Below, piece by piece: positions 5,271 through 61,025 of a stretch of 64,000 nt of DNA (position 1 is the stretch's first letter; each line of letters begins with the position of its first letter). The notes beneath the pieces were generated by a model. The model was not told where the DNA came from and did not search any database. It was given only the letters and a program-made list of their open reading frames with translations. Source of the DNA: an uncultured Gammaproteobacteria bacterium (lineage in GTDB: Bacteria > Patescibacteriota > Microgenomatia > Levybacterales > GWA1-39-11); the NCBI GenBank assembly GCA_964504535.1, contig CAZDED010000004.1:44115-108114 (forward strand), read 5' to 3'. A program made the position numbers and the translations under genes.

Positions 5271-7382
5271 CTAGGCTTGCGGGCAGGAGGATATCATTAT
5301 TGAATCTTGCGAATTATTTACCTTCCTATATATCTCGTCTGTCACAAAGGGCATTATTGGATGAAGAAGTTTTAAAATTGTAGAGTAAACGAATTCTAAA
5401 GTAGGCTGAGCTTCTGCTCTTCTGTCTTTTGTCGATTCAATATACTTATCGGCAAATTCATGCCATGTGAATTCATAAAGAAGTTCTGAGATGTCATTAA
5501 ATCTATAAGAAGCATATGCTGCGTCAATAGTTTTTATAACCTCATTAAGCTTTGCAACAATAGCCTTGTCGTCTGCATGGTCAGATATTTCACTCTGAGA
5601 ATCGTCAGGTTTAAAATCGATGATAAATCTACCCATATTCCACAATTTATTTGTAAAGCGACGAGCCGCTTCCAATTTTGGATAAGAAAGCGCTTGATCA
5701 TTACCAAGAGCCGTCCCATAGACGAGTGCAAATCTCACTGCATCAGCTCCATATTGATCGACCAGTTCTAGTGGATTTACAACATTTCCCTTACTTTTAC
5801 TCATTTTCTTTCCCAACGGATCATTAACCAATCCGTGAAGAACTACATTTTTAAAAGGAACTTTGCCAGTGGCATAAAGCCCCATCATCATCATACGAGC
5901 AACCCACCAACGAAGAATGTCGTACCCTGTTTCCATAACGGATGTTGGATAAAAGGTTTGGAAATCTCCACTTTGTGTAGTTTGAAGAGTCGCAAATGGC
6001 CATTGCGATGAGGAGAACCACGTGTCAAACGTGTCGTTGTCTTGTTGCCACTCCTCACCAGACGGAACCTCTCCTTCCGTTACCATCCACTCTCCGGTTT
6101 TTTTATTTTTCCAAGCAGGGATTCTGATCCCCCACACAACTTGTCTTGAAATATTCCAATCACGAATGTTTTCTAAAAATTGAAAATACAATTTATCAAA
6201 ACTTGCAGGATATATTTTGGTATCACCTTTTTTTACCGCTTCAATTGCTGGACCAGCTAATGGCTCCATTTTTATGAACCACTGCTCCAACGGAAGCGGC
6301 TCTAAAACATTATTACATTTGTAACAAAGCCCGATTCTATGCTTGTAATTCTCGTCGATATTAATGAGCAAATCGTCTTCTTTAAAGTCTTCAACCATGA
6401 GCTTTCTAACCTGCTTCACATATTGTCCATGATACTTCTCTGCTCTTGCTCTGTATTTTGGACTAACATCTTTTTTCTCGAGAAACCAAGAAAAATCCAT
6501 TTTCCCGTCAAACCCAATAATTGGGGTGACTGGCAATCCATATTTTTTCCCCAACTCAAAATCATGAGGGTCATGCGCTGGAGTAACCTTCATTATTCCC
6601 GTCCCAAATTCTGGATCAACTTCAGAGTCAGCGATAATCTTCATTTTAACTGGTCCCAAAAGTCCCATAATCTCATACTCTTTCCCAATTTCATCTTTAT
6701 ATCTTGGGTCATCAGGATTGACAGCTAACGCTGTGTCTCTAAATTTTGTTTCGGGTCTTACGGTTCCTATAACAAAGGGTCCGTATTTAATTTTATAAAA
6801 AGGACTGGTTCTCTCTTCATACACCACTTCCAAATCTGAAAATGAAGTTCCATCAAAAGTACAATAATTAACTAACCTGTTGTCTCTATATACTAACCCT
6901 TCATCATGGAGTTTTTTAAAATTCTTATATACGATAGCAACGATTTCTGGATCGATTGTGAGTTTTTTTCTCGACCAGTCGAGTGAAAATCCCATTTTTC
7001 GAAGTTGATTTTCCATTACTGGCCTGTTTCCTTGCACAAATTCTAAAATCATTTTGTATAGAGTGTCGCGGTCGTAATCAAACCTACTCTTCCCCTCCAA
7101 TGCTAGCCTTTTTTCAAAAACAAATTGGGTCTCAAATCCTGCATGATCCGCTCCCGGCTCCCAGAGAGTTTTAAACCCTTTCATTCTGTGGTAGCGGACA
7201 AGAATGTCTTCGATAACGTACATGGCGTGCCCGAAATGTAATGGGGCGTTGGCATTTGGGGGCGGAAGAATTATAGAATAGGGCTCCCCCCCTGGATTTA
7301 CCTCGGGCTTGAAGTATCCTTTCTCTTCCCATTCCTTATAAAGAGCATCCTCTACTTTTGTATGATCGTACACTTTGTCCAT
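5271..7382 (-). CDS. valS: Class I aminoacyl-tRNA synthetase, most likely valyl-tRNA synthetase (compact form).
   Basis: PPPNANAPLHFGHA (HIGH region of ValRS/IleRS/LeuRS type, PPPN as in ValRS) and KMSKSKGN. At 703 aa it is shorter than canonical ValRS. Confidence 0.55.
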   Translation of the reverse strand: MDKVYDHTKVEDALYKEWEEKGYFKPEVNPGGEPYSIILPPPNANAPLHFGHAMYVIEDILVRYHRMKGFKTLWEPGADHAGFETQFVFEKRLALEGKSRFDYDRDTLYKMILEFVQGNRPVMENQLRKMGFSLDWSRKKLTIDPEIVAIVYKNFKKLHDEGLVYRDNRLVNYCTFDGTSFSDLEVVYEERTSPFYKIKYGPFVIGTVRPETKFRDTALAVNPDDPRYKDEIGKEYEIMGLLGPVKMKIIADSEVDPEFGTGIMKVTPAHDPHDFELGKKYGLPVTPIIGFDGKMDFSWFLEKKDVSPKYRARAEKYHGQYVKQVRKLMVEDFKEDDLLINIDENYKHRIGLCYKCNNVLEPLPLEQWFIKMEPLAGPAIEAVKKGDTKIYPASFDKLYFQFLENIRDWNISRQVVWGIRIPAWKNKKTGEWMVTEGEVPSGEEWQQDNDTFDTWFSSSQWPFATLQTTQSGDFQTFYPTSVMETGYDILRWWVARMMMMGLYATGKVPFKNVVLHGLVNDPLGKKMSKSKGNVVNPLELVDQYGADAVRFALVYGTALGNDQALSYPKLEAARRFTNKLWNMGRFIIDFKPDDSQSEISDHADDKAIVAKLNEVIKTIDAAYASYRFNDISELLYEFTWHEFADKYIESTKDRRAEAQPTLEFVYSTILKLLHPIMPFVTDEIYRKVNNSQDSIMISSCPQA

Positions 7383-9832: not shown

Positions 9833-9987
9833 AGCTGTCTTGGCTACGCTAATGCAGCTGACGGCCTTGTAAATAATGCGCTTGACTTCAAAATTTAACG
9901 GTTCTACTTAATTTGAGTATGTAACCCAATTCCCGCACTACGTTCAAAATACTCGACAAGCGGTAATTATATCTCTACAATTAATGT

Positions 9988-12684
9988 ATGCCGAATATAC
10001 AGTTAGTGGAGGAAAAGGAATCAAAGCTCCCCTTGTTTTGCATATATGGTGACGAAGAATTTCTTCAACAACATCTCGTGAACCAAATTACGAAGAAATT
10101 TCGAATAATTGTTATATCTAGTAAAAAGCCCACCTTTCTTGAAACCCTCCCAGAAATATACTTCCTCACCTATCAGGATGCCACCCTGCTACCGAAGATT
10201 GAAGAGACTATTGACTACGCGCTCGTCCTGTTGGCGGGGGAAAAAGCAGCTACTTTTTTGTCCCCCGTCATGTCAAAGTTTTCACTGGACAAAACAACCG
10301 TACTTTTTACCATTGACGTATTTGCTTTAGTAAAGAATTTGGAAGTTATAAGAGAGCACAAATCCAATCCCAATGTTAGAATCTCACTTCTGGGGGAACT
10401 TCTTGTACAGAAAGAGGGAAGTCAAAAAGGGCAGCTTTCGAAAATTATTGAGAATGTATTGTCAAACCACACAATTGATCTTCACGGAGACAATCTTTCA
10501 TCCATTTATCCAATTTCTGTAAAAGACGCTATTAGTGGAATTCTTAGATTGTTGTTGGGAAATTATAAAAATGGAATTATGCATTTCTTGTTTTATAAAA
10601 ATCCCGAGACAATACTTGCATTTTCACATGTGATTGCGCGAATCGATCCTGACATAAAAATTAATTTTTCCGATGAAAAAACAAATTCACTAACTATTTC
10701 CCGAGATGAAATAAAATCAATTCTCGTGACTCGCCTTCAAATACACGATGCATATATGGATACTGCATTCGAAGGATTTGAAAAAGCGATAACACCAATT
10801 CTCGAAGGAAAGGAATTATTACAGGACACCACAAAAGAAGGCAATCTTTCAAAAAGATCTAAAAAAGCGAAAAGAAGAAAAAAATTAATAGATTCTTTTC
10901 GTTTTACAATTCTCAGCTTGTTCTTTGGCACTTTTCTTTTTCTATTCATCAATCTCTTATGTTTTGGTTTGGGCCTTCTGTACCTTAGACAAGTTGTTCA
11001 AGATATTAAGTCTGACAATTTTAGAAATGTTGAAAAGAATGCAAGAATCTCAAATTACTTTTTAGCTGCTATCAAACCTACGACAAATATTACGTTTGAA
11101 ATAATCGGAAACATTGATGCATTTCAAAAATTAACAAACTCCTACATGTTCATCCAAAAAGCGGGAGAGCTCTCACGACTCACGGGCACAACAATGATAA
11201 CACTGTTTAACGGTAATATATTATCTGAACCAATACTTGCAACACTCACCTCAAATCTTTCGTTCCTATATCAAGAAGGGCAGAGGGTTACATTAGAAAC
11301 GGGGAACAAGGATATAGCTGCAAATCTCAAGCAAACATATTCGAAGCTTCTTAGTTTATCTGAAATTCTACCAACAATTCTTGGGTTCCGTGAAGAAAAA
11401 AACTATTTATTTTTATTTCAAAATAATGAGGAACTCCGCCCAACAGGAGGATTTATTGGTTCAATTGGAGACGCAGTCGTAAAAAACGGCAAAATTGAAA
11501 GCTTAACCATTCAGGACGTATACGAACTTGATGGACAGTTAAGAAACCACATCGAGCCTCCATATATTGTTAGACGATACCTCCAACCACATTTATATCT
11601 GAGAGACAGTAATTTTTCTCTCAACTTCCAGGAGTCAGCAAGCATGTCGGCCTTTCTCTATAATCTTGAAACGGGGAAAAAACCCGATGCGGTAATAGCA
11701 GTTGATCTGGAAGTCTTGAAGGAAATCTTGAAATTATCCGGTCCTATAAAATTGCCCACCTACAATGTCACTGTAACCAGCGATACTGTTTCTGATTTCA
11801 TACAGAGTACAATAAAAGAAAATTTCTTCCCAGGATCAACACAAAAAAGGGACATTCTCAACAATCTTTTTACCCAACTCATCCTAAAAACGACAACCGA
11901 TTCGAAATTCTATATTAAGATTGCAAAACTAATTCCTGACTTATTAGAGAGAAAAGATATTCTCATTTCATTTAGCGATAACTCTGTCCAAAAAGCTTTC
12001 TCTGCAAATGGGTATGGAGGAGAGTACAAGGACAGTAGGGTTAGCAACACAAAAAACATTAATGATTTCTTATATATAAATGAGGCAAATATCGGAGCAA
12101 ATAAAGTTAATGCATATATTTCGAGAGAGGTTACGTATGAAGCTATGCTAGAACAAGGAAGGGTAGCATCAAAAGCAAAATTGCGACTTACAAACACGAG
12201 CCATATAGACGGCTACAAAGTGTACATAAAATTTGCGGTTCCAAAGGGAAGCATCTTAAAGGAAATTTCAATTAATGGGGTAAAGCAACAAACCACTTCT
12301 GCCGTTACGGATTTTAGAATATACGAAGCAAGAAACTTCAAAAAATCAGAAAAATTGGAAGTAGAGCAGTACACTAAGGACAATTTTACGTATTTTGCTT
12401 TTGTTACCGAAGTACTTAAAGCTGAAAAAGCAGATATTGAAATTACTTATGATAATGGCGTATCAAAACCACTATCAACAATTGTAGATTATTCGTTACT
12501 ATACATTAAACAACCCGGAACAAAACCCTATCAAGTAACCACCGTTGTTGATTATCCAGAAGGCTATATACCTGTAAATACTTCTGCTGATTCTTTCGGT
12601 AAAAATTTTCTCGAGCAAACAACAATTGCAACCAAAGACTTCCAGAACAAAATTGAAATTCAAAAGGCTTCTGTGCAAAAATAA
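9988..12684 (+). CDS. Large membrane-anchored protein: ~300-aa cytoplasmic N-domain (Rossmann-like), one TM helix, ~560-aa extracytoplasmic domain (possibly DUF4012-like).
   Basis: 898-aa ORF; TM segment FTILSLFFGTFLFLFINLLCFGLGLLYL around residues 305-335; no catalytic motif recognised. The DUF4012 family assignment is uncertain. Confidence 0.45.
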   Translation: MPNIQLVEEKESKLPLFCIYGDEEFLQQHLVNQITKKFRIIVISSKKPTFLETLPEIYFLTYQDATLLPKIEETIDYALVLLAGEKAATFLSPVMSKFSLDKTTVLFTIDVFALVKNLEVIREHKSNPNVRISLLGELLVQKEGSQKGQLSKIIENVLSNHTIDLHGDNLSSIYPISVKDAISGILRLLLGNYKNGIMHFLFYKNPETILAFSHVIARIDPDIKINFSDEKTNSLTISRDEIKSILVTRLQIHDAYMDTAFEGFEKAITPILEGKELLQDTTKEGNLSKRSKKAKRRKKLIDSFRFTILSLFFGTFLFLFINLLCFGLGLLYLRQVVQDIKSDNFRNVEKNARISNYFLAAIKPTTNITFEIIGNIDAFQKLTNSYMFIQKAGELSRLTGTTMITLFNGNILSEPILATLTSNLSFLYQEGQRVTLETGNKDIAANLKQTYSKLLSLSEILPTILGFREEKNYLFLFQNNEELRPTGGFIGSIGDAVVKNGKIESLTIQDVYELDGQLRNHIEPPYIVRRYLQPHLYLRDSNFSLNFQESASMSAFLYNLETGKKPDAVIAVDLEVLKEILKLSGPIKLPTYNVTVTSDTVSDFIQSTIKENFFPGSTQKRDILNNLFTQLILKTTTDSKFYIKIAKLIPDLLERKDILISFSDNSVQKAFSANGYGGEYKDSRVSNTKNINDFLYINEANIGANKVNAYISREVTYEAMLEQGRVASKAKLRLTNTSHIDGYKVYIKFAVPKGSILKEISINGVKQQTTSAVTDFRIYEARNFKKSEKLEVEQYTKDNFTYFAFVTEVLKAEKADIEITYDNGVSKPLSTIVDYSLLYIKQPGTKPYQVTTVVDYPEGYIPVNTSADSFGKNFLEQTTIATKDFQNKIEIQKASVQK

Positions 12685-24813: not shown

Positions 24814-26133
24814 CTAGCGGACAACTACCGTGAATTGCCTCCCCCCGGGACTGGTCGTGATCTGTATGCTGATCACGAAATGTGTTTTGGTCGTGTCAGG
24901 TGCCATTTGCCCGGGAAGGCAATTGGCGTTTCCTTCACAGGGAGCAGATGCGAGGGCAGTGAATGAGAAGTGCCAGCACTTCCCAGACGTAGGACAGGCT
25001 GGCGCCTGTGACATTGGCGCTGGACTTGCTGCATTTCGTGGATATTCCGTCATATCCATAGTGAGCTTGATCGTCACCCCCGTCGCAACGTCTGGCGTGG
25101 TCAGATCGAAAGGAACCACGTCTCCCGGACAAATGACCGAATAGCCTATCGTCAAGGAGTCGCCGTTGGTTGCCGTGTATGTAGTTCCCGAAGTGCTGGT
25201 GCACGAAACGGGCGGCGGTGTAGGAGTGTTCGTTGGTGTAGCACTTGGACTTGGGCTCGGCGTTACTGCCGACTGGGTCGGGGTTGGCGTCGATGTCTTA
25301 GTCGGAGTCGGACTTGGCGAAACCCCGGGCACTGATGTTGAGGTGCTCGTGGCTGTTGCTGTAGCCGTTCCGGTCTGAGTGGCAGTTGCCGACGGGAACA
25401 CTGTTCCCGTAGACGTTGTGCTCGGACTTGGAGACGGAGCTACGGTTCCGGTCTTTGTTGCCGTTTGAGTCGGCGTGATCGTAACAATTCCGGTTGCCGT
25501 CGGAGTGACAGTCCTGGAAAAGATTGCCCTAGGTGACGGCGTGGCTGATGGCATCGGAGTTGATGTCTCACATCCCGTAAGGGCATATGGGGCAACTTGT
25601 ACTTGCGTACTTGCGTATACCTCGCTCCACGCGGCAACCCAGTCTCGATTGAGACCGATGACCATCCCGACGCCGACATTATTGCCGTCGGCAACGAGCT
25701 GATCTGCGACCAATGGGTCTTGCGCCATAGCGCTTACCGACACCTGATCCGCGGCTACGATGCTTGCTGACTGTGCCTGAACTTGAGAGCATTCAGGCGT
25801 ACTGTCTGAAGCAACGAAGGGAATGGTTAGGCGATGCGACATGGTGGCGCTAGGTGGCGTCTGGGACGCTGATGCTCCTTCGGCAATTGCCGGATTGTCC
25901 ATCCTCACAAGAGAGAGGACAAGCATGGCGGCTGCCAAAAAGAGCATCACAACCGGCGGAATGGATCTTCTTGAACGGGTGTGCACAGAACTCCTTCTTT
26001 CCTTTATGGGCTGGCTGAGTGTTTGCAGGTTTTCAAGGAGCGTTTCCGCATCCTTAAAAGCAATCTTTGAGGTGCGAAAACACAACTCAAGGGTATTATA
26101 TAACATCTTCCCGAAGGAAGATGTTTTCTTCAA
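24814..26133 (-). CDS. Secreted/cell-surface protein with a long Thr/Pro/Ser-rich linker and a Cys-containing C-terminal domain; compositionally foreign (GC-rich). The true start is probably an internal Met, for example near 25947.
   Basis: 439-aa ORF, the longest in a ~1.3-kb stretch whose GC and third-position GC are far above the flanks. Signal-peptide-like RSRRSIPPVVMLFLAAAMLVLSLV...AIA|EG; PT-linker (TPTATGIVTITPTQTATKTGTVAPSPSPSTTSTG...). The first 10 codons overlap a terminator hairpin. Confidence 0.55.
   Translation of the reverse strand: MKKTSSFGKMLYNTLELCFRTSKIAFKDAETLLENLQTLSQPIKERRSSVHTRSRRSIPPVVMLFLAAAMLVLSLVRMDNPAIAEGASASQTPPSATMSHRLTIPFVASDSTPECSQVQAQSASIVAADQVSVSAMAQDPLVADQLVADGNNVGVGMVIGLNRDWVAAWSEVYASTQVQVAPYALTGCETSTPMPSATPSPRAIFSRTVTPTATGIVTITPTQTATKTGTVAPSPSPSTTSTGTVFPSATATQTGTATATATSTSTSVPGVSPSPTPTKTSTPTPTQSAVTPSPSPSATPTNTPTPPPVSCTSTSGTTYTATNGDSLTIGYSVICPGDVVPFDLTTPDVATGVTIKLTMDMTEYPRNAASPAPMSQAPACPTSGKCWHFSFTALASAPCEGNANCLPGQMAPDTTKTHFVISIQITTSPGGRQFTVVVR
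26102..26125. terminator. Perfect 10-bp inverted repeat (aacatcttcc-cgaa-ggaagatgtt) followed by T-rich sequence; rho-independent terminator downstream of the beta-lactamase-like gene.
   Basis: Seen directly in the sequence, 33 nt past the stop of the 26158..27015 minus-strand gene. Confidence 0.6.
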
Positions 26134-32866: not shown

Positions 32867-33155
32867 TCCGTGATAGCTCAATGGTAGAGCAGGAAGCTGT
32901 ATAGAAATGCAGCTCCCGATAGAAATATCGAGATGAATAACTGGGCTAATTCGGGGAAATCCCAAAAGGACAATCCCGAGCTAAATTCCCAAGCGAAGCT
33001 GAGGACTTGTCCTGAGTCAGCCGAAGGATAAATGTGTAGAGACTATATACCCAGGACCTAATTCGAAAGATATGGTCATAAGATAGTCCAAGCCTTTTAG
33101 TAATAGAAGGGTTCTTGTAACTTCAAGGTTCTAGGTTCGAATCCTAGTCGCGGAG
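32867..33155 (+). tRNA. tRNA-Asn (anticodon GUU inferred), interrupted in the anticodon loop by a group I intron. Exon 1 is 32867..32900 and exon 2 is 33118..33155. No encoded CCA.
   Basis: Acceptor TCCGTGA/TCGCGGA (U1-A72, G73, as in bacterial tRNA-Asn), D-arm GCTC-AATGGTA-GAGC, anticodon stem GGAAG/CTTCA, T-arm CTAGG-TTCGAAT-CCTAG. Loop after splicing is CU-GUU-AA. Confidence 0.7.
32901..33117 (+). ncRNA. Group I self-splicing intron (~217 nt, compact IC3-like tRNA-intron type) inside the tRNA anticodon loop.
   Basis: P1 has exon ...GCUGU paired with intron GCAGC (U·G at the 5' splice site). P element aattcggggaaatccc, Q caatcccgagc, R gtgtagagacta, S aagatagtcc (GACUA/UAGUC P7 pairing). 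Terminal omega-G at 33117. Resembles Azoarcus/Anabaena tRNA introns (GAAGG.GUAGAGACUA). Confidence 0.75.
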
Positions 33156-34643
33156 CACCTTACGTCTTATTATAACGTGTTGATTTGAGTTCAATACGGC
33201 AAATATAGGCGTGTATTTGACCTCAAAAATTTCCTTGTTTTTTATTAAAATCTCCTCAAAAAAGAAGCGTAAATAATGCCTTTTTAAGAAATCTGGAGCC
33301 TGTGTATATGCTTTTTTAATATTTCTCGTAAAATATAGCACCTCTTGTATTAAATTTATGTCAATTTTATTGCCACCTTCGAGCTCATTCATTGACTGTT
33401 GTAGACTATTTAACTGCAATTCTATCTCATCATATTTGCGCTTAAAGGTATCTCGAGAAATAGACCCGTCAATCATCATGTCTTCCAACTTTTCTCTACG
33501 TAACTCGTAAGCCATTCTTTGATTTTGTATTGCTTGTTTCCTCCCGGCTAGTCCCTGTCTATTTCTCTCAACCAATTCTTTCGTCTTTAAAACAACTCTA
33601 TCTATAAACTTTTGCGTAAACTGAATTTTAGATAATTCTTTTTTAACTAATTTTTCCAAATCACCCACTTCTACATACGGAGCAGGACAACCATTTCTTC
33701 CTCTCTTTTGACAGTGATAATATGCTATTTTCCCTTTTTGTTTAGTAAATCTTTTATGCTTATGCCATTCAGCTGTATATCTCTGACCACACTCACCACA
33801 CTGGATAAAACCTCTCAAAAGAAAATTATGAACACGCCTTCTTATGAGAAAGTTCCTATGCTTTGCCAATACATACTGGCATGTATCAAAAAGTTCCTTA
33901 GAAAGTATTGGTTGGTGCTTTCCTATTTTAGCCTCACCATGCCATCTAATAAGACCGTAATAGAAAGGGTTTCTAAGGATTGTGTTTATTACGCTATGAC
34001 TCAAAAGAGCACCGCTCTTAGCCAATACATTTCTTTCACACAGCCAATCCTGTATCTCCATTATCGAATACCCGCCGGTTGCATACAGCTCAAACATCTC
34101 TTTAATTATCGGAAACATATAAGGGTCTGGTTCGCAAGACTTTCTTTCTCCGTCTCCGCCCACACTCCTATAACCTAGCGGTGGAGGTGTTGGCTGCCAA
34201 CCTTCTCTAAATTTCTGCATGAGGGCATCTTTCGTTCTTGCTCCATTTACTTCACTTTCCCATTGAGCGATGCTTGCAAATATATTTGGAATAATGCTAT
34301 TTGTACCTGTAAGGTCTCCTTCGTTCACAGACAATAGTTTTATGTCTCTATTCTTGAAATCTGTATAGAGTTGTGCAAAGTCAGCGACGTTCCTAGCGAA
34401 TCTATCAATCTTATAAATAATAAGTGCTTCAACCGGCTCGTCTTTTAACTGTGCAAGCATTTCCTGAAGCGCAGGTCTAACAGTAGTTCTTGCACTTCTT
34501 CCATCGTCTGTGAATATTCTCTTTACTTCATACCCATTAAGCTTTGCGTAGTTGGTACAAGCCAGTCTCTGATTTTCAACAGAAAAGCCTTCTCTTGCCT
34601 GCTCGTCTGTAGAAACTCGTAGGTAAATGTAACAATTTTTCAT
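33144..34643 (-). mobile_element. Large serine recombinase/integrase (resolvase catalytic domain + recombinase domain + zinc ribbon + coiled coil). Its 3' end overlaps the 3' exon of the tRNA.
   Basis: YIYLRVSTDEQ catalytic Ser motif, IYKIDRFARN, C-terminal CxxC..C zinc-ribbon (CGECGQRY...CQKRGRNGC). The probable start is the internal Met at 34643, since the ORF-track start at 34715 adds an unlikely 24-aa leader. Confidence 0.85.
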
Positions 34644-34698
34644 ATTAGTATTTAGTTCAAATTTAAAATAATGTAAGCCTATAATTATCTTATAGGAA

Positions 34699-35157
34699 TT
34701 AGTTGAGTCGTTCAACCTTGCTTAATCTTAATCCTTTCCTTCTCAAAAAATCGTCAACACTCTCAATGCTATTGGCATCATTTTTATCTTTTCTTTTTAT
34801 ATAAGTATTCTTAGTAGGAAGCTCCCTTCCTTCATTACCTGGAACTTTACTTCCAACCTGATAGGAACTCCCATTCCACTCCCTTTCAAGCTCTTTCGTT
34901 ACAAAATAAGTATTTGGCTTGTTAAAACCTGTGCGCTTTTTGGATAGTATTCCTGCTTTTATCAATTCGTCTATTAAATTTCTTATATGTCTATCTGATA
35001 AGCCCATATTCTGAGCAAGTGTTAATTGACTAGGATAACAATAATCCTTTTTACCAGCGTATTTAAGGAGTATGCAGTATAGAAATCTGGCTTGATAAGT
35101 TAGCTGTGATTCAAGAAAAATGTTGTTATCAATCATTGTAAAGTTCTTTCTTTTCAT
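34699..35157 (-). CDS. Winged-helix DNA-binding protein of the phage/plasmid replisome-organiser (DnaD-N-like / replication initiator) type.
   Basis: FLYCILLKYAG...YPSQLTLAQNMGLSDRHIRNLIDELIKAGIL pattern typical of mobile-element replication/regulatory wHTH proteins. Confidence 0.5.
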   Translation of the reverse strand: MKRKNFTMIDNNIFLESQLTYQARFLYCILLKYAGKKDYCYPSQLTLAQNMGLSDRHIRNLIDELIKAGILSKKRTGFNKPNTYFVTKELEREWNGSSYQVGSKVPGNEGRELPTKNTYIKRKDKNDANSIESVDDFLRRKGLRLSKVERLN

Positions 35158-54287: not shown

Positions 54288-55142
54288 TTATATATGAAAG
54301 AAAGAGTCTACAGATAGCATAATACAAAACGCCAACAAATTCAAAAGAGAAAACCCAAACATTTTTTTTGCCCATTTTATTTCGTCTTTAGCATTAAAAC
54401 CCTTCACTCCAATATACAACCATACTAGACTCACGAGAGAAATAATTATTAGATACGGATACCCTGCATATCCGAGAAAGGTAAAAAGAGAAGTTATTAC
54501 AATAAATGCGCAAATATAAAAAAGAATCTGTATCTTAGTATTCTTAATTCCTCTCACAATCGGGAGAACAGGGATGCCTGCGTCTTTATAGTCGCTCATC
54601 CTATAAATTGCGATCGAGTAAAAATGGGGCATTTGCCATGCAACCAAAACAGCAAACAGTAGAAGGGCGGGGACATCAAAGTTATTTGTAACTGCCACAT
54701 ATCCAACAACCGGCGGAACTGCCCCTGAGATACTTCCGACAAGTGTACCGTATTCAGATTTCCTTTTCCAAATACTGTACACGACAACATAAAAGAAAAA
54801 TCCCAGGCAAGCAGTAAGCGCAGTTATTGTATTAATATTAATAAGAAAAAGAACTCCCAATACCCCCAAGACTGTCCCAAACGTCAAGGCATTTTTGACA
54901 GGAATAGTTCTTTTAGCCAGTGCTCTTTTTTTGGTACGATCCATTTTTCTGTCGATTGTGCGATCTATATAATTATTAAAAACACACCCTGAGGCAATCA
55001 CCAAAGACAAACCTGAAGCCATCTCAAACATTGTAGATATATTTACATTTCCGCGTGCAGCAAATAAAAAACCGGCAAGTGCGGCTATGATGTTTCCCCT
55101 AATTATTCCGGGTTTTGTGAGGAGATAATAATTTCTTAGCAC
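54288..55142 (-). CDS. cyoE: Protoheme IX farnesyltransferase (heme O synthase).
   Basis: UbiA-family prenyltransferase topology with conserved NxxxDxxxD-like motif (NNYIDRTIDRKMDRT); operon position after the oxidase subunits. Confidence 0.8.
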   Translation of the reverse strand: MLRNYYLLTKPGIIRGNIIAALAGFLFAARGNVNISTMFEMASGLSLVIASGCVFNNYIDRTIDRKMDRTKKRALAKRTIPVKNALTFGTVLGVLGVLFLININTITALTACLGFFFYVVVYSIWKRKSEYGTLVGSISGAVPPVVGYVAVTNNFDVPALLLFAVLVAWQMPHFYSIAIYRMSDYKDAGIPVLPIVRGIKNTKIQILFYICAFIVITSLFTFLGYAGYPYLIIISLVSLVWLYIGVKGFNAKDEIKWAKKMFGFSLLNLLAFCIMLSVDSFFHI

Positions 55143-55546
55143 TATTTAGATATCCCTTCGTCATACTGGATATAATCTTGAATGACTTCATTGGGCATCA
55201 TATTGTAATTGAGATGAGTCATGATCCATATCGACCCAATAACTACAAGGGCGACAATCGAAAGAGCAGAGAGGAACACAGCAAGATTCCAACGAGGTCC
55301 ATTTTCTTTATCTAAATGAAGGAAAAAGATTGACTGCACTACAAATTGTAAAAGAGCCAGAAAAATAATAACTCCAATCGTAATATCTTTTGGAATTAAA
55401 TTTTGCGTTACTACTAAATAGGAAGAGAGTGTTAGAAGTCCCGAAAGTGAAAATCCAATAACATATGATTCAAGTGTTCCTTCTTTTTTATGTGCCTTCA
55501 TGATAATCCTCCCATCAAATAAACTATCGTAAATATAAATATCCAA
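55142..55546 (-). CDS. cyoD: Cytochrome o/aa3 quinol oxidase subunit IV.
   Basis: Three-TM, ~130-aa protein with YVIGFSLSGLLTLSSY pattern; operon position. Confidence 0.7.
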   Translation of the reverse strand: MDIYIYDSLFDGRIIMKAHKKEGTLESYVIGFSLSGLLTLSSYLVVTQNLIPKDITIGVIIFLALLQFVVQSIFFLHLDKENGPRWNLAVFLSALSIVALVVIGSIWIMTHLNYNMMPNEVIQDYIQYDEGISK

Positions 55547-56070
55547 ACAATATCAAGAAAGTGCCAAAATAGTCCCGCCATTGAAATTTTCTGAAGGTTA
55601 GTCTGAGTTAGTCCACGCTTCCTAACATACAGTAGAATTATTGCTATCCAGATACATCCTATTAATATATGGAGACCGTGGGTTCCGGTGAGGGCAAAAA
55701 AGGAAGACAAGAAAGCGCTTTTTGTCCAATCGCTTCCCTCGGATATAAGATGAGCAAACTCATAAAGCTCCATACCTACAAAAACCAACCCCAGGCTCAC
55801 TGTTACAAGAAGCAACATGACTGTTTTTCTCACATTATTGGCACGAGCTGCCATCATCGCTAGTCCACAAATAAATGAACTTATTAGAAGAATAAATGTC
55901 TCCACCAATACAAATGGCGGGTTGAATATTTCCTTAATTGTTATCCCTCCAAACGTGCTGTCTCTCAGAACGGCATAAACAGCAAAAAGAACCGCAAACA
56001 TCAAAAGATCAGTCATGAGATAAATCCAAAAGCCAAAAAGGGCACTGTCGTCTTTTTTATGTTCTTGCAT
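55498..56070 (-). CDS. cyoC: Quinol oxidase subunit III. The start is trimmed to the internal Met at 56070; the ORF-track start at 56136 would overlap cyoB by 80 nt.
   Basis: Five-TM heme-copper oxidase subunit III pattern (HGLHILIG, FWHFLDIVWIFIFT). Confidence 0.75.
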   Translation of the reverse strand: MQEHKKDDSALFGFWIYLMTDLLMFAVLFAVYAVLRDSTFGGITIKEIFNPPFVLVETFILLISSFICGLAMMAARANNVRKTVMLLLVTVSLGLVFVGMELYEFAHLISEGSDWTKSAFLSSFFALTGTHGLHILIGCIWIAIILLYVRKRGLTQTNLQKISMAGLFWHFLDIVWIFIFTIVYLMGGLS

Positions 56071-58030
56071 GGTGTTTCCTTTCTTCAATTTCTCGTACTT
56101 GTGCTGCAGTAACTGTATATTCCGTGTGGTCATCAAAAGTACGAAGTATCACACAAATAACTCCACCTATTACGCAAACGATCGTCAACCAAAACATGTG
56201 CCAAATCATTGCAAATCCAAAAAGAAAAACGAAGACGGCAGTATAAATTCCAAGTCCGGTATTTTTCGGCATCACGATATCTTCATATTCTTTGTGCTTA
56301 TTGTGGCTTCCATTTTTCTTCATTTCCCAAAATGCATCACGAGAGGTAACCTCTGGAATTTTTGCAAAATTATAAAAGGGTGGTGGAGAGGAGGTAGCCC
56401 ACTCCAAATTCCTCCCATCCCATGGATCTCCGGTGGTGTCCATGTTTTGTTTTCTTTGTTTTACGCTAATAACTATTTGGGCCACCTGCAAGAGTGCGCC
56501 TGCTGTCAAAACCAAAAACCCAAGTCCTGCGATGATAAATAGTATCTGCCAACCCGGATTATCATAATGGTCAAGCCTTCTTGTAGCACCCATTAGTCCC
56601 AATACATAAAGCGGCACAAAAGACATAAGAAACCCAACTAACCAACACCAAAACGCATACCTGCCAAGTTTTTCATTCAACCTAAATCCGGTTATTTTAG
56701 GAAACCAAAAAGTAATGCCGGCAAATATTCCAAACAAAGCACCTCCAATTATCATCGTGTGGAAGTGAGCGACGAGAAACAAACTATTGTGAAGCTGGAA
56801 ATCAGCAGGGGGCATCGCCAATATTACACCAGCCATCCCTCCAACGGTAAAAGTTGCTAAAAATCCAAAAAACCAAAGGAACGGCGTAGCAACCCGTATC
56901 CTACCTTTATACATTGTTGATATCCAATTAAATATCTGGACCCCTGCAGGAATTGCAATAAGACTTGTCATAATTCCAAAAAATGCATTAACATTTGCCC
57001 CAGCCCCCATGGTAAAGAAGTGATGCAGCCACACAACAAGACCAATTGAGGCAATGCCGCATCCGGCAAGAACCATTGATGTGTATCCCGAAAGTCTTTT
57101 CTTGGAGAAAGTCGTCACAACTTCCGAATAAATCCCGAAAGAGGGGAGAATCAAAACGTACACCTCTGGGTGACCCCACATCCATATTAAATTCGTGTAC
57201 ATCATGGCACTTCCCCCAAAATCTGTCGTAAAAAAGTGCATTCCAAAAACTCTATCAAGAGACAGCAATGTAATTGTTGCAGTCAAAATAGGAAATATCG
57301 AGACCACAAGGATCATGCTAAATAATGATGTCCATACAAAAAGTGGCATTCGAGAGAGCGTCATCCCCGGTGCTCTTTTTTTCATAATTGTCATAATAAA
57401 ATTTATTGCACCAATTAGCGTCCCGAGGCCAGATACCTGAAGAGACCATATCCAAAAATCCACACCAACCCCCGGACTAAATTGCAGCTCAGAAAGAGGA
57501 GCAATAGCAAGCCAACCGGTTGCAGCAAATTCTCCACCAAAAACAAAAAACAGATTTATCATGATGCACCCCGCAACATACAACCAAAAACCCAACGTGT
57601 TAAGAAAAGGGGAAGCCAAATCTCTTGCTCCAATCTGAAGGGGAATAATGTAGTTAAGTAGCCCAAAAAGAAATCCCATCGTTACAAAAAACACCATAAT
57701 AACGCCATGTGCTGTAAATATCTGCTGAAAATGATCTGCTGTCAGATAGCCTTGAGAGGAACCTACGGCGATAGCCTGCTGTGCCCATATCATTCCAGCA
57801 TCCATGGCTCCCCTCACTAACATAAGAGCTGCCATAACAAAATACATGATTCCAATTTTTTTAGGGTCTGTTGAAGTGAACCATTCATTCCATAGCCATT
57901 TCCACCTTTTTAGTTTTGTGATAAAAATAACGACCATCCCCATCATTGCGGTCATGGCAACTGTCCCGCCAATTGTGAACCATTCGTGGGGAAGAGAAGC
58001 AAGCGTTAATTTTCCAAAAATAAATTCCAT
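56057..58030 (-). CDS. cyoB: Heme-copper quinol oxidase subunit I.
   Basis: 657 aa with ~15 TM helices; conserved His ligands (WFFGHPEVY-like GHPEVYVLILP, HHFFTMG, VAHFHTMI). Confidence 0.9.
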   Translation of the reverse strand: MEFIFGKLTLASLPHEWFTIGGTVAMTAMMGMVVIFITKLKRWKWLWNEWFTSTDPKKIGIMYFVMAALMLVRGAMDAGMIWAQQAIAVGSSQGYLTADHFQQIFTAHGVIMVFFVTMGFLFGLLNYIIPLQIGARDLASPFLNTLGFWLYVAGCIMINLFFVFGGEFAATGWLAIAPLSELQFSPGVGVDFWIWSLQVSGLGTLIGAINFIMTIMKKRAPGMTLSRMPLFVWTSLFSMILVVSIFPILTATITLLSLDRVFGMHFFTTDFGGSAMMYTNLIWMWGHPEVYVLILPSFGIYSEVVTTFSKKRLSGYTSMVLAGCGIASIGLVVWLHHFFTMGAGANVNAFFGIMTSLIAIPAGVQIFNWISTMYKGRIRVATPFLWFFGFLATFTVGGMAGVILAMPPADFQLHNSLFLVAHFHTMIIGGALFGIFAGITFWFPKITGFRLNEKLGRYAFWCWLVGFLMSFVPLYVLGLMGATRRLDHYDNPGWQILFIIAGLGFLVLTAGALLQVAQIVISVKQRKQNMDTTGDPWDGRNLEWATSSPPPFYNFAKIPEVTSRDAFWEMKKNGSHNKHKEYEDIVMPKNTGLGIYTAVFVFLFGFAMIWHMFWLTIVCVIGGVICVILRTFDDHTEYTVTAAQVREIEERKHHART

Positions 58031-58031
58031 A

Positions 58032-58895
58032 TTAGTGATTCATTGTTCCCATATATTTCGTGATAATTTTATTATACAAACCTTCTTCGGTTGATGAGTA
58101 AAAGAGTGGAGGAGTGTTCTCTGATGGCACCATCAACTTTTCATATTCATTATCGTCTAACTTTTTCGGGGAGTTTTTGACTACTTGTATCCATGAGTCA
58201 AATTCATTTTGGGTCACTGATTTTGCCATAAATTTCATACCAGAAAATCCCCGGCCACTTATTTCAGCAGCCGATCCTTTATACTCTCCCGTTGCATCTG
58301 CTATAAGTCTTAATTTGGTACCCATTCCGGTCATGGTGTACATTTGTCCACCAAGGGAAGGTATCCAAAATGAATTCATGGGCGCATCTGAAGTCAACTC
58401 AAAATTGATAGGGGTTTTTTCAGGAAACTCTAAATAATTTACCGTTGCAATGTCTTTCTCGGGATAGATAAATAACCACTTCCACTGAAGAGAAATCACC
58501 TGAACTGTAAGAGGTTTTTTGTCAGATTCTAGCGCCCGCATGGGGTCAAGACGGTGGGTTGCTCTCCAATTGTTGACCCCAAGGATAATTACGACAACTG
58601 TAGGGATCGCCCACCACGCAAAAACCAACAACCTGCTCCTATTCCAGTCTGGGTCATAGGTAGATTTTTTTGATTCATTATATTTCCTTGATACAAAATA
58701 CTCGAGCATAAAAATAGGGATGACAACAAGCAGCATAATTCCGACAGCAAATAGTGCAAGATTTCTTTCATGTGTTGCTATAAAACCTTTAGGGTTAAGA
58801 AGAGCAAAGTCTTCTCCGGTCATAAACCCAATAAAAATTATTCCCAACACCAAAAGCGCAGGCATAATAATATAAAGATGGTGTTTTTTTAACAT
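58032..58895 (-). CDS. cyoA: Quinol oxidase subunit II, with no CuA site.
   Basis: Two N-terminal TM helices and a cupredoxin-like domain lacking the CxExCGxxH CuA motif (SFWIPSLGGQMYTMTGMGTKL), as in bo3/aa3 quinol oxidases. Confidence 0.8.
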   Translation of the reverse strand: MLKKHHLYIIMPALLVLGIIFIGFMTGEDFALLNPKGFIATHERNLALFAVGIMLLVVIPIFMLEYFVSRKYNESKKSTYDPDWNRSRLLVFAWWAIPTVVVIILGVNNWRATHRLDPMRALESDKKPLTVQVISLQWKWLFIYPEKDIATVNYLEFPEKTPINFELTSDAPMNSFWIPSLGGQMYTMTGMGTKLRLIADATGEYKGSAAEISGRGFSGMKFMAKSVTQNEFDSWIQVVKNSPKKLDDNEYEKLMVPSENTPPLFYSSTEEGLYNKIITKYMGTMNH

Positions 58896-59279
58896 AAATT
58901 TCTAGTGCTAGATTAATTGTATCATTCCTCATTACCAGATTTATGATCCATATCACAGAATTTTCGTAGTAAAAATGATAGAAGCGGAGCTTGTATCACT
59001 CCGTGATATAATTCCCCTACACCCGAGAGCGAAAAGCATGCTCTTTACGTGTAAAAAGTTTTTAGCACATTAAAAATCTAGTTACGAAAAAGTGATCTTA
59101 ATTATGATTTAGTGTTCCTATTTAGGTACCGGCGTACACGGTGTTTGACTAGGGGCACTAATTCGAAAGAAAGGAGAAGAGCCCTTGGCAGTACGACCAC
59201 GGGTGGAGCCTTCTCCGCCCACAGATCATAGACACGTCACGGCCAGTACGGCCACAAATGCTCATGAAAGGAGCAACTC

Positions 59280-60404
59280 TTGGCAAATGCACAAGGTCTA
59301 ACAACCGATGGGGCTGGAGAAAGCACTACGTCAAGCTCTTTCAGTCACCTAGTCAAAACGGAGCGGGTAAAAGAACTTCTTCGTTCACACGACAGGAGCT
59401 TCTACGCCCACTTCGTGTTCATCTTCATCTGCGTCACGCTGGACCTTTGGGCAACCGCCTTCTGGGTTTCGCGCGCCGTGGAAGCCATAGCCCTCGGAAG
59501 CACCACGGGAATCCTCTCCGGATGGATTGGCCAGCTCGGCCACGACGCCGGACATGGACAGGCCCCAAAAGGCAACATGCCCCTCCAAAGGGTTTTCCAA
59601 CTATTCCTCGGGCCTGTGTGCCTTGGGTTTAGTTCGACTTGGTGGATCAACAAACACGTAATCCACCACAAGTATTCCAACTGGGAGGGAAAGGACGGGG
59701 ACCTCAACATCCCACTTCCTTTCACGGCCAATCAGGCACGGGAACGCGGAAAGACAGCAGATTCTTTCCGTATCAAGAACGCAAGGTGGATCTTCCCCTT
59801 GATCTTGCCCCTACAGGCCATCAACGCCCGGATTTCAAGTATTTTCTACGTTTTCAAGTCGAAAGACAGACTGCGTGGAAAGGTTCTTCAGTTGGGCGGC
59901 ATCGCCTCCCATCTCGCTCTGTACGGACTGCTGTTGTACGTGATCGTACAACACGCAGGCTGGCACAACGCCCTGTGGTTTGCGGCCTTTCACCAAGGGG
60001 TTCACGGGTTTTACAACGCCTGTGTGTTCGCGACGAACCACAAAGGCATGCCCGTTTTTCCTCCCAACCAAAAGCCTGAGTGGCTTGACCTCCAAATCCT
60101 AACCTCACGCAACGTGAGGGTCGACTGGGAAATTTTCCACTTGAGGCACGGGTGGATCCTCGAGCGAATAGTGGACGAACTGGTCACATGGCTGTACGGA
60201 GGCCTTAACTACCAGATCGAACACCACCTGTTCCCAACGATGCCCCGGGCAAACCTGCGAAAGGTACGCCCACTCGTAATTGAGTTCTGCCGCCAACACG
60301 GTTACGACTACTACGAGACGGGGGTCATCAGGTCCTACAGGGAAGTTCTCCAGAACTTCGAGAACGTGAGGATTGAACTCCTCGACAGTCCGATGGGTGC
60401 GTAG
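59280..60404 (+). CDS. Membrane fatty-acid/sphingolipid desaturase of the front-end (Q-x2-HH) type, without a cytochrome b5 domain; compositionally foreign (GC-rich), TTG start.
   Basis: Three His boxes (HDAGH, HVIHH, QIEHHLFP) with the expected TM topology. The whole ~59.1-60.4-kb stretch is strongly GC-enriched versus the flanks. SD aaaggag lies 8 nt upstream of the TTG. Confidence 0.7.
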   Translation: MANAQGLTTDGAGESTTSSSFSHLVKTERVKELLRSHDRSFYAHFVFIFICVTLDLWATAFWVSRAVEAIALGSTTGILSGWIGQLGHDAGHGQAPKGNMPLQRVFQLFLGPVCLGFSSTWWINKHVIHHKYSNWEGKDGDLNIPLPFTANQARERGKTADSFRIKNARWIFPLILPLQAINARISSIFYVFKSKDRLRGKVLQLGGIASHLALYGLLLYVIVQHAGWHNALWFAAFHQGVHGFYNACVFATNHKGMPVFPPNQKPEWLDLQILTSRNVRVDWEIFHLRHGWILERIVDELVTWLYGGLNYQIEHHLFPTMPRANLRKVRPLVIEFCRQHGYDYYETGVIRSYREVLQNFENVRIELLDSPMGA

Positions 60405-60473
60405 GTCGCACATTCGTAACTAGTTAGTTTTTTTTGGGAGTTTTTGACTATGTAAAATAAAAATTCCCAAACC

Positions 60474-61025
60474 CTAATGAGTGGGGGAGAGATATTCTTC
60501 TTTGACCTCTTTTTTGTATTCTTGCAACAGCTTCTTTATCTTTGGAGAGATCACATAATCACAATATCCCTGAGTCTTATTGTTATCATAAAAATTCTGG
60601 TGGTATTCCTCAGCGGTGTAGAAAGTTTCAAATGGGACAATTTCTGTAATGATGGGGTCACCGTAGAGACCTGAATCAGCAATTTCATCGCGTACTTTTA
60701 AGGCTTTCTCTTTTTGTGTATTGTCGTGGTAAAAAATTGCAGAGCGATATTGCGTCCCCTCATCAGCTCCTTGCCTATTTAACGTCGTGGGGTCGTGGAG
60801 GTTAAAAAATATCTCAATTAATTTCTCATAAGAAATAATAGAGGGGTCAAATTCCATCTGTATCGCTTCAGCATGCCCGGTTGCCCCGGTTGTGACCTGC
60901 TCATATGTAGAGTTTTCTCTCGCACCCCCTGCATATCCAGAGACAACATCCTCAACACCCCTGAGTCTTTTGAAGATTGCCTCGGTGCACCAAAAGCATC
61001 CGCCTGCTAGTGTTGCTTTTTCCAT
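60474..61025 (-). CDS. msrA: Peptide methionine sulfoxide reductase A.
   Basis: GCFWCTE active-site motif at the N-terminus. Confidence 0.9.
   Translation of the reverse strand: MEKATLAGGCFWCTEAIFKRLRGVEDVVSGYAGGARENSTYEQVTTGATGHAEAIQMEFDPSIISYEKLIEIFFNLHDPTTLNRQGADEGTQYRSAIFYHDNTQKEKALKVRDEIADSGLYGDPIITEIVPFETFYTAEEYHQNFYDNNKTQGYCDYVISPKIKKLLQEYKKEVKEEYLSPTH

Follow-up and report, generated by a model that had tools for sequence, protein, structure and literature searches.

How a fatty-acid desaturase gene with a base composition foreign to its surroundings comes to stand in the genome of a bacterium with a GC (guanine plus cytosine) content of 38%, and why it keeps that composition, is the question raised by the locus analysed here. 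Patescibacteria, also known as candidate phyla radiation (CPR) bacteria, are believed to form their membranes with lipids taken from the host, and to our knowledge very little is known about how they tailor these host-derived membranes. The stretch under study (contig CAZDED010000004.1, positions 44,115 to 108,114, 64,000 nucleotides; hereafter the window) carries the gene beside a quinol oxidase operon. An earlier note on this DNA had read it as a single-gene insertion recently acquired by horizontal transfer. Our comparison with related loci leads to a different explanation, which we hold to be probable: the GC-rich desaturase is a swappable cassette that occupies a fixed slot behind a conserved structured leader, and its composition is maintained.

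The compositional anomaly itself was borne out. GC content in 200-nt windows rises from about 0.35 to 0.50–0.60 over approximately 59120–60410 and then falls to 0.34. The sole long open reading frame (ORF) of this stretch, a plus-strand gene for 374 amino acids that begins with TTG, has a GC content of 0.545, with 0.56, 0.40 and 0.675 at the first, second and third codon positions (GC1, GC2 and GC3), respectively. GC3 in the 46 other long ORFs of the window averages 0.321 (standard deviation 0.042, maximum 0.429), which places the desaturase at z = 8.4; among windows of 1125 nt its GC content has z = 6.3. The same junctions recur across independent assemblies (L125–L128), and the Logan contig L125, assembled independently, matches the window at 100% identity over 12 kb; the GC-rich stretch is therefore not an assembly chimera.

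The product is confidently predicted to be an intact membrane di-iron fatty-acid desaturase with histidine boxes of the front-end type (Q-x2-HH), as had also been proposed. Pfam family PF00487 (FA_desaturase) matches residues 71–346 (E 4.3e-26, 92.6 bits against a cut-off of 29.7), and the boxes HDAGH (residues 88–92, with H88 and H92), HVIHH (126–130) and QIEHH (312–316, with Q312 and H316) are invariant or nearly so in 19 relatives. Because the eight histidines and the glutamine are kept in every allele found at the locus, all alleles look functional. Q312 is invariant across all aligned alleles and outgroups, and a third box that opens with glutamine is a feature reported for front-end desaturases (PMC4404247). 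PF00487 was the only Pfam domain detected, with no second domain such as a cytochrome b5 fusion; this fusion is missing in bacterial relatives too, so that a front-end-like mechanism is still compatible with the window protein. The AlphaFold2 model has a mean predicted local distance difference test score (pLDDT) of 88.6 and a predicted template modelling score (pTM) of 0.85, and its N-terminal 70 residues are variable and partly disordered. Searched against the Protein Data Bank (PDB) with Foldseek, the model was matched best by one chain of 8xks/8xqw (chain identity not given) with a template modelling (TM) score of 0.63–0.66; further matches included AlkB (0.43–0.46) and SCD1 (0.31–0.35). 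No NCBIfam model matched the protein, and a sequence search of the PDB returned nothing at E ≤ 1.

The closest homologues of the protein, metagenomic proteins at 47–71% identity, all come from the same lineage and the same locus. Among the matches listed, the best named homologues from outside belong to Actinomycetota and Dehalococcoidia and share 30–39% identity, and no external homologue above 39% was found among 5.8 billion proteins. A profile search of genome contigs with the clade alignment gave no close relative among the matches listed, only distant Actinomycetota and Chloroflexota loci at 30–39%. In a neighbour-joining (NJ) tree with 100 outside homologues, most CPR alleles form one group apart from the outsiders, and most of them share a C-terminal SPMGA motif. 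Within its known family the enzyme constitutes a new subfamily, and no description of this gene or locus was found in the literature searched on desaturases in Saccharibacteria, Patescibacteria or CPR. A homologue with 34% identity was also observed at 6001–6963 of contig L078, which belongs to a metagenome-assembled genome (MAG) labelled 'Candidatus Woesearchaeota archaeon' (DPANN, an ultra-small symbiont group).

A fixed dnaA-proximal slot holds the desaturase throughout a lineage of Patescibacteria. Related loci were taken from the contigs of the nearest desaturase homologues and from those of the closest DnaA relatives of the window, and all 10 distinct loci examined (DnaA 63–98% identical) carry the gene in the same position, upstream of a convergent msrA and near an AI-2E transporter–dnaA–dnaN group; msrA adjoins the desaturase directly in eight of them. 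This distribution bears on the reading of the earlier note, in which a foreign desaturase would have been inserted once, and recently, from a GC-rich donor into a genome previously without one. Such an event would fit the GC3 outlier, the disagreement between the allele and its flanking genes that is described below, and the high GC of the Actinomycetota and Chloroflexota that provide the nearest named relatives outside the lineage. However, the slot is never found vacant among these loci, and the search for a foreign donor clade ended within the lineage itself, with outsiders at 39% or less. The structured GC-rich leader had been taken as a sign of import, but its GC-rich part is a conserved element of the host lineage and is inherited vertically, with 90.7% identity to the leader of contig L129. 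Flanking repeats of the att type were absent apart from weak ones at chance level, and the flanks contain no adjacent mobility genes. As the synonymous sites also argue against it (see below), a recent one-off insertion seems very improbable to us. The horizontal component of the claim survives in another form, namely the replacement of one allele by another at the slot.

The evidence for replacement is clearest between two near relatives, L003 and L089. Their flanks agree in DNA sequence at 94.3% (6.9 kb) and 95.6% (9.9 kb), and homology is lost only at 9940–11185 of L003 and 7068–8318 of L089, in a gap that opens approximately 40–60 nt ahead of the start codon and closes at the msrA 3' end. 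Their desaturases share 32% of residues, against 98% for DnaA, 100% for the AI-2E transporter and 98% for CyoA. The pattern is not confined to this pair. Among the window, L003 and L089, DnaA is 95–98% and the AI-2E transporter 96–100% identical in amino-acid sequence and the desaturase 32–50%; among six near relatives (window/L125, L003, L089, L093, L129 and L132), MsrA is 84–95% and the desaturase 31–50% identical. The window allele itself is 33–50% identical to those of its near relatives, whose MsrA and AI-2E proteins match those of the window at 84–95% and 91–96%, respectively. The relation is reversed with the distant genome of L001, where DnaA is 64% and the desaturase 70% identical to the window. 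The desaturase tree is accordingly strongly incongruent with the flanking genes. DNA homology between the window and its near relatives stops at 59235–59295 and resumes at 60169–60486, and the most variable part of the coding sequence (CDS) relative to them spans approximately 59295–60170. These alignments point firmly to exchange of the CDS as a unit between conserved frames. A search for intragenic mosaics between alleles showed that sliding identity follows the conservation profile of the family, with no clear breakpoint. Window-type and L003-type alleles were both recovered from the neighbouring run accessions SRR12487035, SRR12487045 and SRR12487046.

In-place divergence of a vertically inherited gene, through fast evolution or targeted mutagenesis and without any replacement, might also leave conserved frames around a variable CDS, and the N-terminal 100 amino acids of the desaturase are indeed its least conserved part. 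Yet the CDSs of L003 and L089 cannot be aligned by blastn and differ by several indels within flanks that differ by about 5%, and the window allele resembles that of a distant genome more than it resembles any near-relative allele. No template repeat like that of a diversity-generating retroelement was seen. We regard in-place divergence as hardly credible. Divergence in place cannot give a DNA difference of about 5% in the flanks and of more than 50% in the CDS. Replacement by recombination through the conserved frames is the economical reading.

If alleles are exchanged within the lineage, their composition has to be considered across the lineage as well. GC3 of all recovered alleles is 0.53–0.68, and the GC content of their flanks is 0.37–0.42. 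Most of the third-position excess in the window gene is C (C3 0.41 vs 0.17 in background genes; G3 0.26 vs 0.17). The shares among synonymous codons in the desaturase and the background genes are 0.92 and 0.32 for TAC, 0.89 and 0.40 for CAC, 0.88 and 0.33 for AAC, and 0.78 and 0.22 for TTC, and the usage of GAA/GAG and CAA/CAG is hardly shifted. This preference for NNC over NNU is common to all alleles. Outgroup desaturases from Actinomycetota, Chloroflexota and the DPANN MAG have the GC content of their own genomes. High GC3 had been read as a sign of recent arrival; however, four-fold degenerate sites of the window and L001 desaturases are 0.30 identical, which is the random level and lies within the range of the flanking genes (0.25–0.34), and GC3 at synonymous sites nevertheless stays at 0.67 and 0.57 in the two copies, against 0.33–0.45 in the flanks. 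Because these sites are saturated and GC3 is still high, the composition is not a leftover of recent import, and we infer that it is maintained in the gene. Selection on composition, of the codons or of the mRNA, could be the cause, as could a bias acting on the gene or a GC-richer reservoir that shares the frames. Copies of the same allele are either 98.7–100% identical or at least 15% divergent.

A second GC-rich stretch in the window, at 24814–26133 on the minus strand (GC 0.55, GC2 0.60), was considered as a parallel and rejected, since its high GC stems from amino-acid composition: it encodes a 439-residue low-complexity protein rich in Thr, Pro, Ser and Ala, which has a hydrophobic segment at its N terminus and matches no Pfam family. 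No other such stretch is present in the window.

The reservoir just named deserves separate weighing. Within the same CPR group, a sub-lineage that has this leader and these flanks but a higher GC content might supply alleles to low-GC relatives faster than they ameliorate. The near-relative alleles that disagree with their flanks have a GC3 of 0.59–0.68, higher than the 0.53–0.56 of alleles whose divergence roughly matches that of the genome, as a reservoir of this kind would predict. Flanks of matching GC content were found in none of the 10 distinct loci, however, all of which lie at 0.37–0.42, and the window and L001 copies have both stayed GC-rich through full synonymous turnover. This source for the alleles is in our judgement unlikely.

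The same two groups of alleles bear on a further alternative, in which desaturases would be captured repeatedly at one site from external GC-rich donors, for instance the actinobacterial hosts of an episymbiont, in an integron-like manner; the palindrome at the stop codon would be the recombination site, and the alleles would be GC-rich because they are young. All alleles are GC-rich, those discordant with their flanks most of all, the L089 allele has no close relatives, and a conserved inverted repeat stands exactly at the 3' boundary. No integrase or recombinase accompanies the locus, however; the closest ORF for a recombinase is found 25 kb from it. The 5.8 billion proteins searched include no external homologue above 39% identity, and most alleles form one cluster with SPMGA as a common motif at the C terminus. 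The codon bias is specific to NNC rather than generally GC-rich. The conserved junctions, moreover, take in the Shine–Dalgarno (SD) sequence, the start codon and the last codons, as recombination between homologous loci predicts. Repeated capture from outside is accordingly quite unlikely in our view. We return to the swappable cassette held within the lineage, and to the frames between which it would move.

The 5' frame begins with an extended −10 box, TGATATAAT; the motif TG.TATA.T occurs at the equivalent position in all 11 distinct loci, 159–299 nt upstream of the start codon. A generic −35/−10 scan made no call here because there is no −35 element. Transcription probably starts near 59019, which would give a leader of approximately 260 nt. 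Its predicted fold has a free energy of −86.3 kcal/mol (z = −3.6 against shuffled sequences), and the SD sequence GAAAGGAG lies 6 nt ahead of the TTG start; the combination of a TTG start, a strong SD and a structured leader was thus correctly recognised before. In the conserved core, P1 is a two-part hairpin with invariant AGCG....GCAUGCU and P3 a long hairpin of 23 bp, and a conserved linker, UUAGUUACGAA, joins them. The RNAalifold consensus of 10 distinct core sequences contains 34 pairs, 13 of which show changes on both sides, and 95.9% of cells are paired; none of 500 shuffles reached the observed value, and slid controls were 37–45% paired.

With a covariance model of the core (R1), each locus yields a single copy of 88–150 bits (135 bits in the window), which lies on the strand of the desaturase and always ahead of it, regardless of the upstream gene or the allele. 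Apart from these copies, the model detects nothing in the window, in 369 kb of related loci or, among Actinomycetota and Chloroflexota, in 928 kb around 80 desaturase loci. In Rfam 15 (4227 families) the leader had no match at the gathering threshold or at E ≤ 1. A pattern scan of metagenomes for the leader returned 26 stretches, of which only three (L099, L107 and L123) were real. The window leader is 90.7% identical to that of L129, as stated above, and about 80% identical to those of L003 and L089; it follows the genome rather than the desaturase allele. We consider it a candidate new regulatory RNA family, previously undescribed. The contigs L129, L130 and L131, from three sequencing runs, all start 22 nt upstream of the −10 box, which suggests that the assemblies break there through strain variation upstream of the leader.

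The 3' part of the leader is a candidate expression platform. It is conserved in the window, L003, L089, L093, L129, L132 and L001, and the arrangement of SD and TTG is kept in the window, L003, L093, L129 and L132, which carry five allele types; the L002/L007 group has no 3' part, and its CDS begins right after the core. Helix P4 is predicted to pair an SD-like with an anti-SD-like segment, and the contexts of this decoy and of the true SD form a direct repeat (59150–59176 and 59247–59273). In the predicted ensemble for the window, pairing reaches about 50% at the SD and about 99% at the start codon. On these folds the 3' part may regulate expression. A candidate upstream ORF (uORF) at 59185–59301 (plus strand, TTG start, 38 codons), which overlaps the start of the desaturase out of frame, was not supported, as its frame and length are not conserved. 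It is open in several loci, GC-rich sequence having few stop codons anyway, and in L129 and L132 its stop codon overlaps the main TTG start (TTGA).

At the other end, the last codons of the desaturase, its stop codon and the next 25 nt are conserved. An inverted repeat (GTGCG-TAG-GT-CGCAC; 60397–60411 in the window) spans the stop codon and is followed by ATTCGTAACTAGTTAG. In L003 the repeat forms an 18-bp perfect palindrome at 11089–11110 (GTGCGACCTAGGTCGCAC), and the segment GCG TAG GTCGCAC is present even with the most divergent allele, that of L089; the remainder of the junction is common to the window, L003, L093, L129, L132 and L001. After the repeat, most loci have stop codons in several frames (GTAACTAGTTAG). 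The junction may act as a site of crossover, stabilise the RNA or bind a protein. A hairpin, UUUGGGAGUUUUU ... AAAAAUUCCCAAA, separates the desaturase from the convergent msrA and probably serves as a bidirectional terminator. A simple terminator scan made no call at its position (60429–60473) because the stem has too few G-C pairs.

From these elements a mechanism can be proposed. The 5' frame consists of a lineage-specific promoter and the leader of about 260 nt, with its covarying P1–P3 core, its predicted SD-like/anti-SD-like helix, a partly occluded SD and the TTG start; the 3' frame consists of the conserved junction at the stop codon and the hairpin shared with the convergent msrA. Alleles would be exchanged by homologous recombination through these frames, drawn from an old pool that circulates within the lineage. 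The family as such was probably acquired by the lineage in the distant past, from Terrabacteria richer in GC. The enzyme would use oxygen and an electron donor to desaturate scavenged acyl chains and thereby control membrane fluidity, and the leader would control translation initiation in response to a signal, for which temperature is the first candidate. Adaptation to different host lipids is put forward as a hypothesis for the turnover of alleles.

Several points weigh against parts of this explanation. The step of replacement is itself inferred, no recombination event having been formally reconstructed, and the NJ tree in which most CPR alleles group together is a simple one, without support values, that contains only sequences retrieved by their resemblance to the window protein. 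The L089-type allele stands alone on a long basal branch; its only two non-self relatives in the database of 5.8 billion proteins match it at 33–34%, and it could have been acquired separately. If alleles came from a GC-richer reservoir, no selection would be needed to account for their high GC content, and the precise homologous replacement would be explained as well. No electron-donor gene was identified near the locus, and predicted exposure of the SD showed no trend with temperature between 5 and 45 °C. The taxonomy of the host rests on one NCBI label, 'Candidatus Levybacteria bacterium' (Patescibacteria/CPR), in a cluster of RpoD proteins at 90% identity or more; a first assignment to Saccharibacteria was not borne out.

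Comparison with known systems shows how far the locus resembles each of them. With front-end or Delta6 fatty-acid desaturase (FADS)-like enzymes, the window protein shares the three boxes, the eight histidines and the glutamine that opens the third box (QIEHH). Its model is predicted to be helical and membrane-embedded and may have a fold of the desaturase/AlkB type; eukaryotic members carry an N-terminal cytochrome b5, whereas the window protein has PF00487 only. The Actinomycetota and Dehalococcoidia proteins annotated as 'acyl-CoA desaturase / fatty acid desaturase family protein' belong to the same family, show the same box pattern and are the best non-CPR matches listed. They differ in that the GC content of the gene equals that of the genome, and the CPR alleles form their own NJ group and mostly end in SPMGA; the R1 leader, moreover, occurs at none of the 80 Actinomycetota and Chloroflexota loci. 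Des of Bacillus subtilis (under DesK/DesR) and the cold-induced desaturases of cyanobacteria are O2-dependent membrane enzymes that adjust the fluidity of existing lipids, and their expression is tightly regulated, classically by cold, via a two-component system or mRNA stability. Set against these by description only, the present locus has a long structured 5' leader as its sole conserved regulatory element. The likeness of the third box to that of Bacillus Des-type enzymes, pointed out in the earlier note, is a lead.

Leader RNAs that regulate in cis include riboswitches, RNA thermometers and the thermosensor in the cspA 5' untranslated region (5'UTR). The window leader is like them in being a long conserved 5'UTR with covarying helices that always precedes one gene family, and in its predicted SD-like/anti-SD-like helix and partly occluded SD and start codon; it differs in lying outside all 4227 Rfam families and in having no known or predicted response to a ligand or to temperature. 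Loci for capsule or O-antigen are allelic replacement loci framed by conserved genes. Deeply divergent alternatives in one slot and sharp breaks of homology in near-identical genomes are common to them and the desaturase locus, but those loci encode a surface-antigen pathway, whereas here the unit is almost exactly one CDS for a single cytoplasm-facing metabolic enzyme, and all alleles, unlike theirs, share an anomalous base composition. Integron gene cassettes are alike in that a single promoterless CDS with a 3' inverted repeat is exchanged behind a fixed promoter and, here, a leader. The desaturase locus differs from them in having no integrase and no cassette array, a repeat of only 5–9 bp per arm, and conserved junctions that lie inside the ends of the CDS.

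The coordinates of the features at the locus are collected in Table 1.

Table 1. Features of the desaturase locus and its immediate neighbours, in window coordinates
Feature	Position	Strand	Description
cyo operon (quinol oxidase)	54288–58895		usually on the other side of the desaturase in related loci
cyoA (quinol oxidase subunit II)	58032–58895	−	left-hand neighbour in the window; Pfam COX_ARM and COX2
Extended −10 box (TGnTATAAT)	59004–59012	+	motif kept in relatives
Leader, conserved core (145 nt)	59018–59166	+	P1, linker, P3
Leader, 3' part	59167–59279	+	candidate expression platform: P4, GGCC hairpin, mini-hairpin, SD
P4	59173–59179 and 59210–59216	+	SD-like GGAGAAG paired to anti-SD-like CUUCUCC (predicted)
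GGCC hairpin	59241–59253	+	predicted
GCUC/GAGC mini-hairpin	59260–59274	+	predicted; overlaps the true SD
SD (AAAGGAG)	59267–59273	+	before the TTG start
Desaturase CDS	59280–60404	+	374 aa (amino acids), TTG start, TAG stop; replaceable GC/C3-rich cassette
Conserved 3' junction	60397–60428	+	inverted repeat across the stop codon and following sequence; shared with relatives
Intergenic hairpin	60429–60473		read from the sequence; kept in relatives; probable bidirectional terminator
msrA (PMSR)	60474–61025	−	right-hand flank of the slot; Pfam PF01625, E 2e-65

The surroundings of the slot are less constant than the slot itself. The position of the gene right beside the quinol oxidase operon, to which the earlier note had drawn attention, is correct for the window and does not extend to relatives as a conserved trait: truB or other genes stand between cyoA and the leader in L003, L089, L096 and L005, and truB is not found there in the window, L093, L001 and L132. 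In L002 and L005, no cyo genes were called within the 3–10 kb recovered upstream of the desaturase. CyoA of the window is 54–55% identical to that of L003 and L089, which share 98% with each other, and 74% identical to that of L093, against 95–96% for DnaA between the window and L003 or L089; on these values the quinol oxidase operon is itself mosaic. Operons of the cyo type are documented in several CPR groups in the literature.

Further observations were made in the window and on related contigs. Just beyond dnaN, L003, L089, L093, L096, L125 and L129 contain a conserved cluster with a TraG-like P-loop ATPase, TraC-like and PrgI-like genes (type IV secretion-like) and an M23 peptidase. The nearest recombinase ORF, at 33144–34715 on the minus strand, encodes a large serine recombinase with Resolvase, Recombinase and Zn_ribbon_recom domains. 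A match to the group I intron family RF00028 of Rfam adjoins it at 32891–33110 on the plus strand (58 bits, E 4e-12), outside any tRNA or rRNA, and the two may be part of a mobile element. ARAGORN found no tRNA or tmRNA genes over the whole 64-kb window.

The locus carries a warning for genome analysis: an outlying base composition does not reliably show that a gene was transferred recently. With its synonymous sites randomised, the desaturase gene is still rich in GC and C3 in a genome of 38% GC, and it offers a clean natural test of selection on composition against amelioration. For a metabolic enzyme it is unusual that genomes with about 95% identity should swap alleles with only 32%, and this exchange provides a handle on adaptation to the host or niche at the strain level. 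A more far-reaching possibility, which we put forward tentatively and think rather doubtful, is that the locus serves episymbiotic CPR bacteria as a 'plug-in' module: a lineage-specific riboregulator of a new RNA class would drive whichever allele is resident, alleles of different specificity would be swapped as strains change their bacterial hosts and the lipids they scavenge, and selection on the mRNA (C-ending codons, high GC) would keep the cassette distinct through complete synonymous turnover. A desaturase conserved in its slot, a quinol oxidase operon nearby in most of the recovered loci and a structured RNA of its own point to active, regulated and O2-dependent remodelling of scavenged lipids in these bacteria.

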